DNA from: an uncultured bacterium
Lineage (GTDB): Bacteria > Bacteroidota > Bacteroidia > Bacteroidales > JACABE01
Direction of reading: 5' to 3'
DNA length: 56,022 nt
Assembly: GCA_903911455.1 (NCBI GenBank)
Contig: CAIWDQ010000383.1
Span: 1 to 56,022, forward strand
A program made the position numbers and the translations under genes. This document shows positions 17,758 to 45,075 of this stretch, piece by piece. The first letter of the stretch is position 1. Every line of letters begins with the position of its first letter. The notes under the pieces were generated by a model. The model was not told where the DNA came from. It searched no databases and worked only from the letters and a program-made list of their open reading frames with translations.

Positions 17758-17791
17758 AGAGATAAAGACTGGGAGAATTAAGAATTAAAAA

Positions 17792-18477
17792 GTCGAGTGG
17801 GCAAGGGCATTTCAGCCCAAGCCCCTCACAGAACCGTACGTGAACCTCTCGATTCATACGGCTCTTCTAATAAGACAATACATTAAAATGCTCTTCCCTG
17901 TAACAGTTGGCAAAATGTATATCTTACTAGCTAAGCCCTTCGCTCCATCTCCATTACAGAAACTTCATCACTACTACGACTTAGTCCGCAACTGTGTACT
18001 GCATTGGTAGTATAAGTCTCACTGGTTCTCAGCTTGTACTTTTCCCTTTATCTGTCAGCGAATCCTTGGTCGGTAGCTTTAATGGCAGACTAACATCAGT
18101 ACACAATACTCTCCTGTTCCATATAAAAGCCCAAATAACGTTCATGCCTCCTTTACATCGGTTGCCGCATAACCAGTAAATCAGGTTTCCGTTATGCTCT
18201 TTAAGCCCTCTCTTAACTAGGACGTTTTGACAACAAGTACTTAATCACAACATGTCATCAGTGGTTCACTTGCGTTCATCACCGTTATTCATACCTGATG
18301 GATTATTCCACCTTTTCCTTGACCGTTCAATACCTTAACTTTTGGCTACAGCACCGCAAGGCGGTTTGCAATATCTGCCTGCACAGCTATTGCGAAGGCT
18401 CATCTCTTTTCAAAGACCCCTTCATCTTTTATACAGCATGTATAAAGAACTATTCGCTCTTTTCCTTCAGGACACAC
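17792..18477 (-). mobile_element. ORF-less group II intron (~686 nt)
   Basis: Minus strand: 5' GUGUG at 18477. Domain V at 17831-17864 reads GAGCCGUAUGAAUCGAGAGGUUCACGUACGGUUC. Domain VI has a bulged A (GAGGGGC..GCCC-A-CUC) and the 3' end is ..GAC at 17792. There is no minus-strand ORF of 60 aa or more inside. Confidence 0.75.
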
Positions 18478-18498
18478 TTAAGAATTAAGAAAAAAGAA

Positions 18499-39185: not shown

Positions 39186-41555
39186 TTATTTTGCAATGAT
39201 AAGTTCAGGAACACCTTTAGTAATAAAATAAACAGCTAATCTGGGTGTATCATCGTCAATATACTTACAATCAAAGGTAATAGTATGCTGCCCTGTTGAC
39301 ATTAAAGGAAATTTAGCCACAGTTAGAGTATTGATAAGCTTACCTTTGGCATCAAATACCAGTAATTTGTCGCTACCATCAGTCACTATCTTTTCTCCTC
39401 CATTTAATTGAGTTGGAATCTTAAGCTCATAGTAGTTATCTATCACCATAATAATGTCTTTGATGGTCCCTTTAGTCTTTTCAGCAACTATTCTGAAAGA
39501 AAGTGCCTGTTCATTATCGTTATTTGTATAATTCCATGAAGAGTTTACAGGTTCTCCGGGCTGTTTAAATTCTTTTTCATGAACAAATCCTCTAGATATA
39601 TGGTATTGAAGCAGATTCCATGATTTATCATTAACTTTAGAAAGATGAAATTCAAACTTTGGGTTCTTCAACAATTGTTTTTGTTCTTCACTAAAGGCAT
39701 GAGAACGGCGCGCCGACTCCCAATTGTTGATAGCATCCAGTAATATATCAGTGTTTTGGTTTTTCTTAGCATCTTTATACCTCACAACCATAGCAAAACC
39801 TGCATCATAACCGGCCGCACGTGCTAACATCCACTCCATCTCTGACAAAGTAGTGTTGGCTGTAAGTAAATACCAGCCTAACATGTGTGGCAAGTAGTTA
39901 CGATCAAATAAACCCTGGTTGTCTATCCTGTATTGTTGCATACTTTCGTTAAAACCACCGTACCAAGGCTCTCCCCAGTTGCAATAAGTATTAATATGCC
40001 AGTAAAAAGGCTCTGAATTAGAAGTCCCGTTGATAACTGTATGGTCTAAATTGTCATAAAACTCCTTCGCAAACACTTCAATACCATAATCACCCTGTCC
40101 GCAAGAAAGACTTCCTTCTGAACCATCAAAATCCATCTGACAAATACCTGTTTCATTAAATATTTTAGCAAGATTACGTGCAATTTCCTTGTCTAAATCA
40201 ATATTTGGAAAGAAAACTTTGTAAGGATGATCCATAAGTTTTGCAGCTTTTTCCCCTTTTTTATGTTGAGAAGTATAAGTTCCAAAAGCTCCCCTCTGAC
40301 AATTCAGTAATTGATAAGGAGCTATAGAAGTGACAGTCCTGTAACGAATCAATTCTTTCCCAATCTTTATAGTATGAAGATTGTTTTGTTTTTCATTATT
40401 AAAATATTCGGGAGAAAGAACCGTAATTGTACTGTCTTTATCACTAATATCATTATCTAAATAACTAAAACCAGTAATAGCAAGACGATCATCGGGAATA
40501 GGAGTAACATATTTATCATCAGTAGTTATAAAATTAGATAAAGTATGAACACCTAAATGAATTCCAAGCTTTTCGGCTTTCTTAACACAAGCTTTTACAC
40601 CTTCTTTGTTGTGAAAAAAAGTATAAACAGTGTCAAAATCGTAATGCCCCCAGTTCTGGAAAGGACCTTCGTGATAAAGAGTCATCAAACCAGCACGTTT
40701 TGTGTAAGCTAGCATCTCATCTATATTATTTTCATCAAAGTTAGAGATAATATAAGAGCGTCCGGTCTCAGGCGAAACCTTAGTCCACACACCATTAATA
40801 AGTGGATGAGGTAAACCCTCGGCTATTTCAATTTCACCAATAGTATTTAATGCATCTTTTTCGTAGCAACCAAAAATAGCTATCTTACTTCCCATAACAT
40901 TCTCATTAGGCATAGCATCTACAGGTGCATTCATAAATTGCTTGTTCCACACATCCACATTTCTAGGCTTCGAACGATTAAGAGCAAAAGCTTGCAAAGT
41001 ACTTCCCCAGCGTTGTTTGATAGCAGTACTGCTTCTTGAAATATCCGAACCTTCGTTATTCAAAAGCTTCCCGCCAAGGGTCTTAACATTAAGCACCTGA
41101 ATACCGATGGCAAAGATTTCGTTACGGACTACACCAATAATTTCGCCAACTGTCTTTGAAATTGTGGTAGGATAAGGGCCCCATATAACTGCCTCAATAA
41201 GATCGGGTTTGTCAACGTTAATAAGTTCAATAACTAGATGAGTTTTCTTCTCACTTACCTTAAGAGTCAGCTCTACTTTATTATTAGGATAAACTAAAAC
41301 TAAGGTTGAATCCATTTTGTTATAGATCATTGAGTCTGGATTCTCCATCCCTTTAGCCGTTTTAATACTTATAATCGGAGCTAAAGTGTCCTGATAAATA
41401 TATTCATTTTTATCAATTGTATTATATAACGACCTGATGTTGCCTTGATCGCTAATCATAAGACGAAGCTTGCCTGCATTTAAAAACAACTGGGCATTAG
41501 CATTAATATTTATAAGAAACAATATAAAAACTAGTGTAATTATGAGCTTTTTCAT
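39186..41555 (-). CDS. secreted hypothetical protein, possibly glycoside-hydrolase-like
   Basis: Signal peptide MKKLIITLVFILFLININANAQ starts at 41555 (the track start at 41591 overlaps the promoter box). About 789 aa. No family recognised by eye. Confidence 0.65.
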   Translation of the reverse strand: MKKLIITLVFILFLININANAQLFLNAGKLRLMISDQGNIRSLYNTIDKNEYIYQDTLAPIISIKTAKGMENPDSMIYNKMDSTLVLVYPNNKVELTLKVSEKKTHLVIELINVDKPDLIEAVIWGPYPTTISKTVGEIIGVVRNEIFAIGIQVLNVKTLGGKLLNNEGSDISRSSTAIKQRWGSTLQAFALNRSKPRNVDVWNKQFMNAPVDAMPNENVMGSKIAIFGCYEKDALNTIGEIEIAEGLPHPLINGVWTKVSPETGRSYIISNFDENNIDEMLAYTKRAGLMTLYHEGPFQNWGHYDFDTVYTFFHNKEGVKACVKKAEKLGIHLGVHTLSNFITTDDKYVTPIPDDRLAITGFSYLDNDISDKDSTITVLSPEYFNNEKQNNLHTIKIGKELIRYRTVTSIAPYQLLNCQRGAFGTYTSQHKKGEKAAKLMDHPYKVFFPNIDLDKEIARNLAKIFNETGICQMDFDGSEGSLSCGQGDYGIEVFAKEFYDNLDHTVINGTSNSEPFYWHINTYCNWGEPWYGGFNESMQQYRIDNQGLFDRNYLPHMLGWYLLTANTTLSEMEWMLARAAGYDAGFAMVVRYKDAKKNQNTDILLDAINNWESARRSHAFSEEQKQLLKNPKFEFHLSKVNDKSWNLLQYHISRGFVHEKEFKQPGEPVNSSWNYTNNDNEQALSFRIVAEKTKGTIKDIIMVIDNYYELKIPTQLNGGEKIVTDGSDKLLVFDAKGKLINTLTVAKFPLMSTGQHTITFDCKYIDDDTPRLAVYFITKGVPELIIAK

Positions 41556-41588
41556 GATACTATTATTAGGTTTGATTATAATATTTGG

Positions 41589-41596
41589 CAAAAATA
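41589..41596 (-). promoter_or_regulatory. -7 box TATTTTTG
   Basis: TAnnTTTG match 33 nt upstream of the ATG at 41555. Confidence 0.45.
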
Positions 41597-41603
41597 CTAA
41601 AAT

Positions 41604-41638
41604 AATTATGAATTATGAATTATGAATGATGAATTGAG
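41604..41638. repeat. 7-bp microsatellite (AATTATG)3 AATGATG AATTGAG
   Basis: Five heptamers immediately upstream of the -7 box. Confidence 0.75.
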
Positions 41639-41909: not shown

Positions 41910-42140
41910 ACGCTTGCTTTTACCCTAAACACGCTTGCTTTACCCTGAAACACGCTTGCTTTTACCCTAAACACGCTTGCTTTTACCTGAAACACGTCTG
42001 CTTTTACCAATAACACGCTTGCATTTACCTAAAACACGTCTGCTTTTACCAATAACACGCTTGCATTTACCTAAAACACGCTTGCTTTTGCCTATAACAC
42101 GCTTGCTTTTACCTAAAACACGCTTGTGTTACCCTAAAGT
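41910..42140. repeat. 21-bp phased degenerate tandem array E (11 units)
   Basis: Consensus ACGCTTGCTTTTACCTAAAAC. Every unit is 21 nt. Confidence 0.9.
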
Positions 42141-42237: not shown

Positions 42238-43362
42238 TTAAATAAATAATTCGGCAGCTATACCATCCGCTATAAACTTGCCGGTTCGGGTAAGATAATA
42301 AGAAGTTGCATTCTCTTCTATAGTTTTAAATAAAAGAAATTGTTTTATATTCTCATCAAAATGTTGATTGTATTCTTTATTGAAATGATGTTTCAGATAC
42401 TCTTTATTAATCCCCCAGATAGTCCGCAACGAAGTAAGTATATACTCGTTATATTGCTGTTCAGTACTTAAAATCTCACTTTCAAAAGGGATTATTTCAT
42501 TGTTGATAGACGAAATATACTTTGTAATATTAGCTGTATTCCACTGTCGTGAATGGGAATTGAAGGAATGTGCCGAAGGACCTAAGCCAAGATACTTTTT
42601 CTGGCGCCAGTAATTACTGTTATGTATCGAAATAAAACCATCTTTACAGAAGTTAGATATTTCGTAGTGGATATAATTATTCTCAGTCATCCTGTCCATC
42701 AAAATTACAAACTGACGAATACCTTGTTCTTCGTCAACAGGCTTAGCTTTGCCTTTGTTAATAAGATGATGCAGAGCAGTACCTTCCTCAATAGTAAGAC
42801 AATAAGAAGATATGTGTGGGATGTTTAAATCAAAAGCTATTGATAGATTATCATTCCACCTTTGGTCACTAGCACCGGGAATGCCATATATAAGATCAAT
42901 AGTAATATTATTAAACCCAGTATCCTGTGCACGCTTAATGGCTTCAATAGCTTGTTCTGACGAATGAATACGATTAAGATACTCAAGATCTTCCTTAAAG
43001 AAAGACTGAACTCCCATACTAAAACGATTAACTGGAGTGTTCTTTAATTCAATGATCTTTTCTTTGGTAAGATCATCGGGATTGGCTTCCAGAGTTATCT
43101 CAGCATCCTTATTTATAGTATAATATTTATAAAGTTGATTGAAGATTGCATCTAAATTATCTTTGGTAAGAAGCGAAGGCGTGCCACCTCCAAAGTAAAT
43201 AGTATTTATTTCTTCATCCTTAAGATAAGTATGTTGTAGAGCAATCTCCTTTAACAAAGCATCAATAAAAGCTTCCTTAGTTTTACCAGAAGCCGATGAA
43301 AAGAAATTGCAATAATTGCATTTCTGCTTACAATAAGGAATGTGAATGTAGATGCCGGCCAT
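42238..43362 (-). CDS. hemW: radical SAM heme chaperone HemW / HemN-like protein
   Basis: 374 aa. N-terminal IYIHIPYCKQKCNYCNF (CxxxCxxC radical SAM cluster) with HemN-like length and C-terminal domain. Confidence 0.85.
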   Translation of the reverse strand: MAGIYIHIPYCKQKCNYCNFFSSASGKTKEAFIDALLKEIALQHTYLKDEEINTIYFGGGTPSLLTKDNLDAIFNQLYKYYTINKDAEITLEANPDDLTKEKIIELKNTPVNRFSMGVQSFFKEDLEYLNRIHSSEQAIEAIKRAQDTGFNNITIDLIYGIPGASDQRWNDNLSIAFDLNIPHISSYCLTIEEGTALHHLINKGKAKPVDEEQGIRQFVILMDRMTENNYIHYEISNFCKDGFISIHNSNYWRQKKYLGLGPSAHSFNSHSRQWNTANITKYISSINNEIIPFESEILSTEQQYNEYILTSLRTIWGINKEYLKHHFNKEYNQHFDENIKQFLLFKTIEENATSYYLTRTGKFIADGIAAELFI

Positions 43363-43364
43363 TT

Positions 43365-43413
43365 AATTATGAATTATGAGTTATGAATTATGAATTATGA
43401 ATTATGAATGAAA
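43365..43413. repeat. 7-bp microsatellite, seven AATTATG-type units, in the hemW 5' leader
   Basis: Starts 3 nt from the hemW start codon. Positions 43385-43410 are the perfect reverse complement of 43517-43542. Confidence 0.85.
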
Positions 43414-43516
43414 ACAATATAAATTATGAATAAATGAAGACTTAGTTTTAGAAACCTAGATTTTTTTCTGCCTTTAGGTTGGCATTGAAAGTACTTAAGT
43501 TCATATAAATTCCCCC

Positions 43517-43544
43517 CATTCATAATTCATAATTCATAATTCTT
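43517..43544. repeat. inverted copy of the heptamer run (CATTCAT AATTCAT AATTCAT AATTCTT)
   Basis: Lies 8 nt from the histidine kinase stop. It forms a 26-bp perfect inverted repeat with 43385-43410 around a 106-bp spacer. Confidence 0.85.
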
Positions 43545-43551
43545 TCCAGCA

Positions 43552-45075
43552 TTAGCTCTTCAGCATGATCCTGAAGGTAGTTCCTTTGTTTATTACTGAT
43601 GATTTAACGAATATCTTTCCTGAATGGTATTCTTTAATAATACGTTTTGAAAGTGATAATCCCAATCCCCAGCCACGTTTCTTAGAAGTATATCCGGGGT
43701 TAAAGATAGTACTGAACTGCGACTTAGGTATCCCTTTTCCTGTATCACTAATATCTATGTAAATATACTTATTGTCTTCAAACATTTCTACACGAATCTC
43801 GCCTGTACCACCCATTGCATCAATAGCATTCTTACAAATATTCTCAATCACCCATTCGAAAAGATGGATGTTTAATGGGATAATGATCTCTTTGTTTTCG
43901 GGAAGTATCTGTACATAATTAACGCTCTTTGGTGAACGGGTAATAAGATATGAAACAGCCCCCTTTACCACATCAACTATGTTCTGTTTAGTAAGTTCCG
44001 GTTCCGAACCTATCTTTGAGAAACGTTGAGTAATTGTATCCAGTCTTTTGATGTCCTTATCAATCTCATCAGTTATAGAAGTCTCAATACCTCTTAGTTT
44101 AAGCAATTCCGCCCAAGCGATAATAGAAGAAAGAGGAGTACCTAACTGATGTGCAGTTTCTTTTGACATACCAAGCCACACCTGATTTTGTTCCGACTTT
44201 CGGGCTGTACTAAACAAGACATAAGATACCAGAAGGAACACACTTATGATCAACAACTGTGCATAAGGATAATACTTTAACTGAGTAAGAAGATAGGAGT
44301 TTTCATAAAAGATATACTTCTTACCAGTGCCTGCCAGATTAAACTCTATTGGAGCGTTCTCCGAAGCCATCACATGTATCAAATGCTTGATGGAAGTAGT
44401 GTCTTGAAGTTTATTCTTATCAATATTACCCGAAGCAAGAACAACTAGCTGAGAGCTATCTGAAATAATAACAGGCACCGACATAGAGTTATCCACAACC
44501 TCCGAAAAGAATGATTGAAAAAGATCGTGAAGTACTTCTCTTAGTTCAGTATATAGTTTCGATTCCTTATAAAACAGATAAGAAACCACATGATACTCAT
44601 CATATTTAATAGGAGGATACTTCGAGAACTCTTCTTTTAAATCCCCTTCAAGCACCTTTCCTTCCTTTATCTTGCTTGTATCATGATCATCAATATTACG
44701 ACAAAGTGTGATAACAAAATCCTTGTTTGTAACAACTACCGGGATATTAGTATTCTCAGATACTATCTGAAGATAAAAAGTAAGGTCTGAATTAGCTCCG
44801 TTATTATCGGGGTTCATCAATCTTTGATGCGCTTCGGCCCAAAGTTCTACACGTTTACGTTCTTCAATCTTAATCTTATCAAAAAAACCATTGGTATAAT
44901 TAACCAGATTAGCTTTGCGCTGAATGGCTTCTGCCCAAAACTTAACTTTATTACGTTCGTCGCGGGCAATCTTCTTAACCAGAGTGTTGGTATACCACAA
45001 CGACAGTGCAACTATAATAATTGCAGAGATAAACAGCACCCACTTCCAACGTTTCTTTCTTGAGTATATATCCAA
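43552..45075 (-). CDS. sensor histidine kinase (no adjacent response regulator)
   Basis: 507 aa. Two TM helices flank a ~230-aa extracytoplasmic region. H-box ETAHQLGTPLSS and HATPase boxes (NAIDAM.., GWGLGLSL). Confidence 0.85.
   Translation of the reverse strand: MDIYSRKKRWKWVLFISAIIIVALSLWYTNTLVKKIARDERNKVKFWAEAIQRKANLVNYTNGFFDKIKIEERKRVELWAEAHQRLMNPDNNGANSDLTFYLQIVSENTNIPVVVTNKDFVITLCRNIDDHDTSKIKEGKVLEGDLKEEFSKYPPIKYDEYHVVSYLFYKESKLYTELREVLHDLFQSFFSEVVDNSMSVPVIISDSSQLVVLASGNIDKNKLQDTTSIKHLIHVMASENAPIEFNLAGTGKKYIFYENSYLLTQLKYYPYAQLLIISVFLLVSYVLFSTARKSEQNQVWLGMSKETAHQLGTPLSSIIAWAELLKLRGIETSITDEIDKDIKRLDTITQRFSKIGSEPELTKQNIVDVVKGAVSYLITRSPKSVNYVQILPENKEIIIPLNIHLFEWVIENICKNAIDAMGGTGEIRVEMFEDNKYIYIDISDTGKGIPKSQFSTIFNPGYTSKKRGWGLGLSLSKRIIKEYHSGKIFVKSSVINKGTTFRIMLKS

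Follow-up and report, generated by a model that had tools for sequence, protein, structure and literature searches.

The perfect inverted repeat upstream of hemW in an uncultured Bacteroidales bacterium is made of two arrays from a genome-wide heptamer family

Introduction

Dispersed tandem arrays of 7-nt units are a published class of bacterial repeat. In Xanthomonas and Nostoc, arrays of GGGNATC and GGGGAYT units are biased towards intergenic DNA and prefer a length of four units, a bias that was put down to G-quadruplex formation by these G-rich heptamers (Rehm et al. 2015, PMC4692102). The same study described a gene-boundary orientation rule, in which arrays lie close to the gene on their 5' side, either in sense orientation after a stop codon or antisense before a start codon. 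It also reported 70-75 convergent pairs per genome with stem-loop potential, and found that related species mostly agree in whether a site is single or paired, although length and sequence vary. The arrays are transcribed, and no function was identified for them.

TAACTGA heptamers are common to Beggiatoaceae, Cyanobacteria and Bacteroidetes, and heptamer-binding proteins have been suggested for them (MacGregor 2015, PMC4679880). Together with the STRR heptanucleotides of heterocystous cyanobacteria and the long simple sequence repeats of prokaryotes, as these are described where PMC4692102 and PMC4679880 cite Mazel 1990 and Mrazek 2007, they are dispersed intergenic tandem heptamers with a patchy cross-phylum range and suspected horizontal spread. 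REPINs and the Correia/NEMIS elements of Neisseria are short dispersed repeats that are intergenic, often co-transcribed, and found both solo and as inverted doublets whose overall size is fixed at ~150-200 bp. Correia elements carry 26-bp terminal inverted repeats that form a hairpin cut by RNase III. Finally, the invertons of Bacteroidota consist of short inverted repeats that bracket 100-700 bp 5' of a gene.

The locus described here, an inverted repeat between a sensor histidine kinase gene and hemW, has something in common with each of these systems. Its arms belong to a family of AATTANG arrays that share with the heptamers of Rehm et al. the dispersed tandem 7-nt units, the intergenic location, the preference for four units and the many convergent pairs, and with the STRR, long simple sequence and TAACTGA repeats the patchy distribution across phyla. 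Unlike the G-rich heptamers, AATTANG is AT-rich and hosted by Bacteroidota, three interchangeable types (A, C or T at position 6) coexist, and the hemW block can be dated as an insertion that splits two overlapping genes. TAACTGA arrays lie in forward orientation just 5' of start codons and include one inverted pair, whereas AATTANG arrays are mainly post-stop and convergent pairs are common. In size, in location and in the mixture of solo and doublet forms, the arrays resemble REPINs and Correia/NEMIS elements, but those have conserved interiors and recognisable target duplications, whereas the interiors of the AATTANG pairs are unrelated and no clear duplication is seen.

Results

Two heptamer arrays bound the gap between the kinase gene and hemW

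We analysed a window (the whole stretch of DNA under study) of 56,022 nucleotides, contig CAIWDQ010000383.1 of GenBank assembly GCA_903911455.1. A first-pass annotation of this sequence had described a 26-bp perfect inverted repeat around a 106-bp spacer, nearly filling the gap between the kinase stop and the hemW start and ending about 22 nt before the latter. A repeat search of the window returned exactly these arms, at 43385-43410 (GAATTATGAATTATGAATTATGAATG) and 43517-43542, each 26 nt long, 100% complementary and 106 nt apart. Both flanking genes are on the minus strand, the gap between them measures 189 nt and holds both arms, and the 3' arm of the repeat ends 22 nt ahead of the hemW ATG. 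Tandem-repeat finder (TRF) placed tandem repeats at 43365-43409 and 43518-43542. The hemW-side array (43365-43410, 6.4 units) is longer than the 26-nt arm, and trimming the element to 43365-43544 is reasonable. The features of the region are as follows.

43552-45075, minus strand: upstream sensor histidine kinase gene, TAA stop at 43554-43552, Pfam HisKA and HATPase_c, orthologues in relatives.
43546-43554, minus strand: TAATGCTGG, at and just after the kinase stop, from comparison with ten sister-genus loci.
43518-43542, minus strand (mRNA-sense): kinase-side heptamer array, three AATTATG units plus AATG, forming one arm (43517-43542).
43411-43516, no strand: spacer of 106 nt, unique in the genome, with no promoter box, terminator or Rfam match.
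43365-43410, plus strand (antisense to hemW): hemW-side heptamer array, 6.4 AATTATG units, whose inner 26 nt (43385-43410) form the other arm.
42238-43362, minus strand: hemW, Radical_SAM and HemN_C, ATG at 43362, N-terminus MAGI as in orthologues.
41604-41635, plus strand: further AATTATG array of 4.6 units, upstream of and antisense to the minus-strand gene at 39186-41591.

The perfect match of the two arms carries no information of its own, because opposed arrays of one heptamer always complement each other, and there are about 250 arrays of this kind in the genome. When the gap was scanned for terminators and promoters, nothing was found beyond sigma-70-like hexamers made by the array itself, and a search of the window region against Rfam 15 gave only a chance-level match to the MS2 operator, at 16 bits where the gathering score is 40. 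A 42-codon open reading frame across the spacer (43395-43523, minus strand) was rejected as a gene because it is not conserved. The hemW-side edge of the spacer (about 43418-43440) consists of decayed heptamer units, but decayed heptamers were rejected as the origin of the interior, which gave no lag-7 signal and looks array-derived at this edge only.

Two further features of the window concern its repeats. On the minus strand at 43366-43430, (CATAATT)n creates repeated sigma-70-like hexamer pairs (TTCATA, 17 nt, CATAAT), which are irrelevant to Bacteroidota promoters and may matter in other phyla that carry the arrays. In addition, a tandem array of 11 units of 21 nt lies 3' of hemW (41910-42138); its length is not the same in L178, an independent assembly that otherwise matches the window exactly. 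The difference amounts to two units (42 nt), while the heptamer arms are the same in both.

The arms belong to a genome-wide family of AATTANG arrays

The 18-mer core of the arm has 10 matches in the window, against 0.04 expected in random sequence. Across the 4.44-Mb assembly to which the window belongs (G000, 97.6% complete), its 22-mer core has 159 matches with up to 2 mismatches, while the reversed control has 0. Exact tandem arrays of at least 3 copies are concentrated at period 7, with 123 arrays compared to 3-26 at periods 5, 6, 8 and 9, and three related units, AATTACG, AATTATG and AATTAAG, dominate among them. A relaxed census (arrays of at least 21 nt) counted 248 AATTANG arrays, about one third of each type. 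All but three of these (245/248) lie outside long open reading frames, in a genome that is 84% coding by the same proxy. The arms of the inverted repeat are members of this genome-wide heptamer family and are not specific to the hemW locus, a point that the first-pass annotation had missed.

The arrays have a fixed relationship to genes. When an array is read as AATTANG, the nearest gene end lies at a median of 17 nt on its 5' side and 143 nt on its 3' side. Within 30 nt there are 115 stops and 13 starts on the 5' side, but only 9 and 16, respectively, on the 3' side; the usual array is therefore sense-oriented and post-stop. Such arrays often precede a terminator hairpin, and a minority of arrays sit antisense ahead of a start codon. 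Both arms at the hemW locus obey this gene-boundary rule. The kinase-side array begins 10 nt past the kinase stop, in the canonical post-stop sense position, and the hemW-side array ends 2 nt from the hemW ATG, where its upstream, antisense placement agrees with the published rule (Rehm et al. 2015).

Array length is also constrained: 143 arrays have 4 units, 67 have 3 and 49 have 5. The four-unit mode (28 nt) holds for all three unit types, and the two hemW-locus arms, with 3.6 and 6.4 units, are atypical. An AT-rich unit cannot form a G-quadruplex, so the four-unit bias of AATTANG does not come from this structure.

The intergenic DNA of this genome is more generally a mosaic built from a small vocabulary of repeats. 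Other short dispersed modules are common on the head-side flanks of arrays, including a CGTCATTGCGAGG..CGAAGCAATC hairpin, CTCCTTTTAGGAGAGG and runs of the 9-mer AGTRCYTAA. Among 23 arrays at contig ends, 18 turn their 3' side to the break. In the window, a group II intron without an open reading frame (17792-18477) sits inside an AATTAAG array (17774-17791 and 18478-18491), in the order ..GAGAATTAAGAATTAAAAA, intron, TTAAGAATTAAGAAAA.

The block at hemW is a lineage-specific addition with a changing interior

We compared the kinase-hemW junction in related genomes. In ten genomes from two sister genera, a single base is shared by the kinase stop and the hemW start (TAATG; ..ATATAATGGCAGG..), which leaves no gap, while all three species of the window's own genus have an array, a spacer and an inverted array at this site. 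Because the overlap is found in the sister genera and the arrangement in all three congeners, the whole 189-nt block is a lineage-specific insertion that split the kinase-hemW pair. The TAATGCTGG sequence at the kinase stop resembles TAATGGCWGG, the ancestral overlap of stop and start, with 1 nt fewer, and may be a faint trace of the old hemW start.

The arms at this site differ between congeners. Like the window, G002 carries AATTATG there, and its contig ends within the hemW-side arm; in G001 both arms are of another heptamer type, AATTAAT/AATTAAG. Comparison of the three interiors in both orientations found no resemblance (z ≤ 1.4), which rules against a flipped interior, whereas control interiors from two other pairs gave clear homology in the same genomes (z = 13.9 and 5.1) and have the same orientation. 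The window interior has no other copy in its own genome and none was found in G001, G002, G004 or G009, and the hemW-site interiors of the congeners were not found in G000. We thus rejected the interior as a mobile cassette. The spacer has therefore turned over fast, and both edges of the block still carry arrays.

An invertible switch in the gap is not supported

The first-pass annotation had considered that perfect repeats of this geometry might form a recombinase-flipped DNA switch, which here would control hemW. The geometry alone, 26-bp perfect inverted repeats around 106 bp, does fit, and the same arms recur at several loci, as they would with a master invertase. However, this reading is very improbable. 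TAnnTTTG, the -7 box, is absent from both strands of the gap, as had been noted. No recombinase gene lies on this contig, which also upholds the earlier remark, and the 97.6%-complete assembly contains no serine recombinase (no Resolvase-family match). It does contain 11 tyrosine recombinase genes (Phage_integrase), 0 of which are on contigs with a pair of AATTATG arrays (a T-T pair). L178 carries a byte-identical 189-nt block, and a partial contig, L179, which breaks in the hemW-side arm, has the spacer in the same orientation; these are assemblies, which show the majority form only. At two other pairs, the interiors also have the same orientation between species. Finally, the arms are tandem repeats from a family whose members are mostly solo. 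A metagenome scan for the strain's kinase-end junction found no match. We rejected the switch on these grounds: unlike a Bacteroidota inverton, the locus has no promoter, no fitting recombinase, one orientation in the assemblies and arms made of tandem repeats.

Convergent pairs have a narrow spacing and matched arms

The first-pass annotation had proposed searching the genome for the same arms around other spacers, and this search found further loci. Neighbouring arrays are convergent in 16 cases and divergent in 1. We analysed gaps in 15 convergent pairs with gaps of up to 400 nt and in 11 direct pairs. Gaps of 89-142 nt were found in 11/15 convergent pairs and 0/11 direct pairs (Fisher p = 2e-4), a spacing far tighter than the gap lengths at solo arrays predict (P = 2.6e-7). 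In 7 pairs, AATTATG is present on both sides (label-shuffle p = 0.0005). Order-wide counts of T-T, C-C and T-C pairs gave 5, 1 and 0 loci, respectively, in G000 and few matches outside it.

Pairs were found in all gene arrangements, with some between convergent genes and some between divergent ones. Those between convergent genes are trivially two post-stop arrays, and others, as at hemW, are 5' of a gene start. The interiors are mutually unrelated (no homology among 12 pairs compared), and the nine own-genome pairs have neither a common interior nor rare variant units common to both arms. Most arrays are solo.

We found that the arms of a pair can change one at a time. At C308, the left AATTATG arm and a homologous interior are retained in G001, where the right arm is AATTACG, and G002 lacks arrays. 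At C556, the whole pair is present in G002 with an identity like that of its flanks; G001 has a mixed array on the left and nothing on the right, and a sister-genus genome has no array. Arm complementarity is therefore not strictly preserved, since arms are lost or switch type singly at both sites.

Variant units hint that arrays are copied. All ten AGTTATG units in G000 occur in one arrangement, AATTATG AGTTATG AATTATG and then plain units in varying number, on contigs C26, C107, C112, C308, C363, C383, C481, C516, C571 and C630. Half of these arrays (5/10) are arms of T-T pairs, among them the hemW-side arm, where the variant unit lies at 43379-43385. Ten arrays with one internal variant arrangement imply that arrays are copied from each other and have not all grown by local slippage.

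Evidence for and against a mobile element

These properties bear on whether the block is a foldback- or MITE-like (REPIN-like) unit, composed of an array, ~100-140 nt and an inverted array, that was inserted whole between the kinase gene and hemW. In this scenario the arrays would be terminal inverted repeats kept by tandem renewal, and the interior would decay or be exchanged. The block is lineage-specific and of MITE-like size (about 180 bp, against 100-400 bp for MITEs), with 26-bp perfect arms at a site that is empty in ten sister-genus genomes and filled in three congeners. The discrete spacing class, the matching of T-T arms and the array haplotype, found in ten arrays of which five are pair arms, likewise fit such a unit, and multicopy families with conserved interiors between the same arrays occur in cyanobacterial and Prevotellaceae genomes (see below). 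ATGGCYGG may be duplicated at both ends of the block. Against this, the interior is unique in the genome and was not found in four relatives, the nine own-genome pairs share neither interior nor arm variants, and at this one site each of the three congeners has an interior of its own. A check of target sites found a weak resemblance between TAATGCTGG and TAAATGGCCGG at the block ends, nothing consistent at other pairs and no convincing target-site duplication. We consider insertion of the whole unit unlikely. The earlier suggestion of a MITE is thus borne out in the lineage-specific, MITE-size block and in the same arms elsewhere, but not by the interiors, and no clear target-site duplication is seen.

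We also looked for candidate mobilising genes. REPINs flank their cognate RAYT gene, whereas the three Y1 (RAYT-like) transposase genes of G000 are flanked by other repeats, so a RAYT link to the arrays was rejected. One AATTACG array lies 150 nt 3' of a Y1_Tnp gene, which is its usual post-stop position. The three genes (G000:C305:2165-2506, C319:8177-8518 and C351:4685-5026) are divergent, one has an internal TAG, and a separate hairpin repeat family flanks each of them, such as GGGCTAAAGCCC, or AGGCACGACATTTATGTCGTG in ~240-nt tandem modules.

A transcript of the gap is predicted to fold

The first-pass annotation had suggested that the repeat would form an RNA stem if the two genes are co-transcribed. 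This prediction was sound: the minus-strand RNA of the gap is predicted to fold into a ~30 bp stem (MFE -60.2 kcal/mol, z = -5.95). Co-transcription of the kinase gene and hemW is plausible, as the genes overlap in sister genera and the gap has neither a terminator nor a promoter, which also makes read-through likely. Stem formation in the read-through transcript is then a reasonable expectation from the folding model.

The stem could have been selected as an RNase III site, an mRNA-stability element or a translation insulator that replaced the ancestral translational coupling. Several features are consistent with this: the strength of the predicted stem; the likely read-through; the gene for RNase III encoded in the assembly; the 22 nt before the ATG that the stem leaves free; and the folding potential, which the three congeners have in common although their interiors differ and the heptamer has changed in both arms (the different arms of G001 are also predicted to fold, z = -3.9). 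However, complementarity is automatic in opposed arrays, arrays are mostly solo, and pairs are found whatever the arrangement of the neighbouring genes, convergent and divergent ones included. Moreover, two other pairs have a counterpart in a congener whose arms no longer match in type or of which one arm is missing, and this loss or change of arms one at a time weakens the case for a regulatory role of the stem. We therefore regard a selected RNA hairpin as unlikely.

The same heptamer brackets interiors in other phyla

We scanned public genomes for AATTATGAATTATG, 100-130 nt and CATAATTCATAATT, and found at least 117 matching stretches. Those listed include many from Bacteroidota (among them Hymenobacter, at 63-67% GC) and others from Cyanobacteria, Chloroflexia, Acidobacteriota, Thiotrichaceae and further groups. 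Among the matches listed, the exact heptamer is kept in genomes that range from 31% to 67% GC and belong to at least six phyla, and the two arms carry identical rare units in 24/90 pairs, compared to 4.3 expected on re-pairing. The latter result also favours the mobile-element reading. A viral collection of 2.9 million contigs contained a single match, which speaks against a mobile element and led us to reject phages as vehicles for the pairs.

True multicopy families, in which a conserved interior lies between the same arrays, were found in cyanobacterial and Prevotellaceae genomes. Several cyanobacterial genomes contain a conserved interior of ~110 nt that is always bracketed by inverted (AATTATG)n arrays (L054:5831-5963, L078:768-914, L103:4220-4351, L066, L097, L052, L118 and L067). 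It contains an inner hairpin (CATTTAGG..AAAAT..CTAAATG) with compensatory-looking changes, and an Rfam search of the conserved-interior loci outside the window found nothing relevant. This bracketed interior is a candidate small mobile element or noncoding RNA. In the Prevotellaceae metagenome-assembled genome Pc512_bin106 (L048, L049, L093 and L101), array pairs have a common sub-terminal inverted repeat beside the arrays, GAATTAGCTACGCAGGCTGGTTT... / ...CTGCGTAGCTAATTC, and so make up a true multicopy element with heptamer-array termini. A group II intron match lies 1.3 kb from the array pair at L048.

The retention of one exact heptamer from 31% to 67% GC across phyla, among the matches listed, would also fit a reading of the arrays as DNA or RNA sites of a protein that reads 7-nt units, for example one of the OB-fold or cold-shock type, with pairs marking both ends of an intergenic region. 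Such a protein would fit the fixed orientation relative to genes and the four-unit mode, which holds for each of the three heptamer types and would not be predicted from slippage alone, and a similar idea was raised for TAACTGA repeats (MacGregor 2015, PMC4679880). But there is no candidate protein, and the idea does not itself explain the spacing of pairs; we hold it to be quite unlikely.

Discussion

We conclude that the inverted repeat upstream of hemW is probably two opposed members of the genome-wide AATTANG tandem arrays, standing at the ends of a recently created gap. The AATTANG arrays form one class with the STRR of cyanobacteria, the heptamers of Rehm et al. 2015 and the long simple sequence repeats. 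Their 5' end is the one next to the gene whose boundary they occupy, in sense just past a stop or antisense just before a start. If both ends of a short gap bear arrays, the two necessarily face each other and are complementary. The arrays may stay perfect through continual renewal of tandem units, by slippage or copying, while the spacer drifts. A read-through transcript from the kinase gene into hemW would then fold into the predicted AU-rich stem of ~30 bp, which RNase III could cut, and this cut would leave 22 nt ahead of the hemW ATG unpaired. Any effect on hemW expression would be a by-product and not the reason why the repeat exists.

Four observations stand against this explanation. 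T-T arms match more often than independent arrays should (7 pairs, p = 0.0005), and pairs are spaced more tightly than solo-array gaps predict (P = 2.6e-7). All three congeners keep matched arms at the hemW site, one of them with a different heptamer, and ten arrays with one variant arrangement point to copying and not to purely local slippage. Because of this matching, spacing and common haplotype, pairs may be entities of their own, mobile or selected, and not simply two independent arrays. The MITE and selected-hairpin readings are, even so, minor rivals. In its broadest form, the alternative is that an array, ~100-140 nt and an inverted array make up a cross-phylum class of foldback-type (REPIN-like) mobile or copied elements, with self-renewing (AATTATG)n termini recognised by a widely distributed protein, and that the hemW block is an insertion whose interior has been replaced. 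We consider this improbable. If true, it would explain the persistence of the heptamer over 31%-67% GC in at least six phyla, the rare units common to both arms, the four-unit mode and the fixed spacing of pairs.

These findings change how the locus should be read. A riboregulator of hemW or a DNA switch is unsupported, and is replaced by a documented repeat block that splits formerly overlapping, translationally coupled genes; the locus is a further example of a published class of bacterial repeat and not a locus-specific switch. The earlier interpretation thus holds for the predicted stem, in part for the MITE, and not for the inverton. That an AT-rich heptamer prefers four units, follows the orientation rule and forms convergent pairs just as the G-rich heptamers do makes it unlikely that the G-quadruplex explanation is general. 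The internal variant arrangement common to ten arrays points to copying over slippage at each site, and in many phyla the identical heptamer brackets unrelated and conserved interiors alike. Together, arm-type matching, fixed spacing, array haplotypes and the identity of the heptamer across phyla leave room for the pairs as copied or mobile units.
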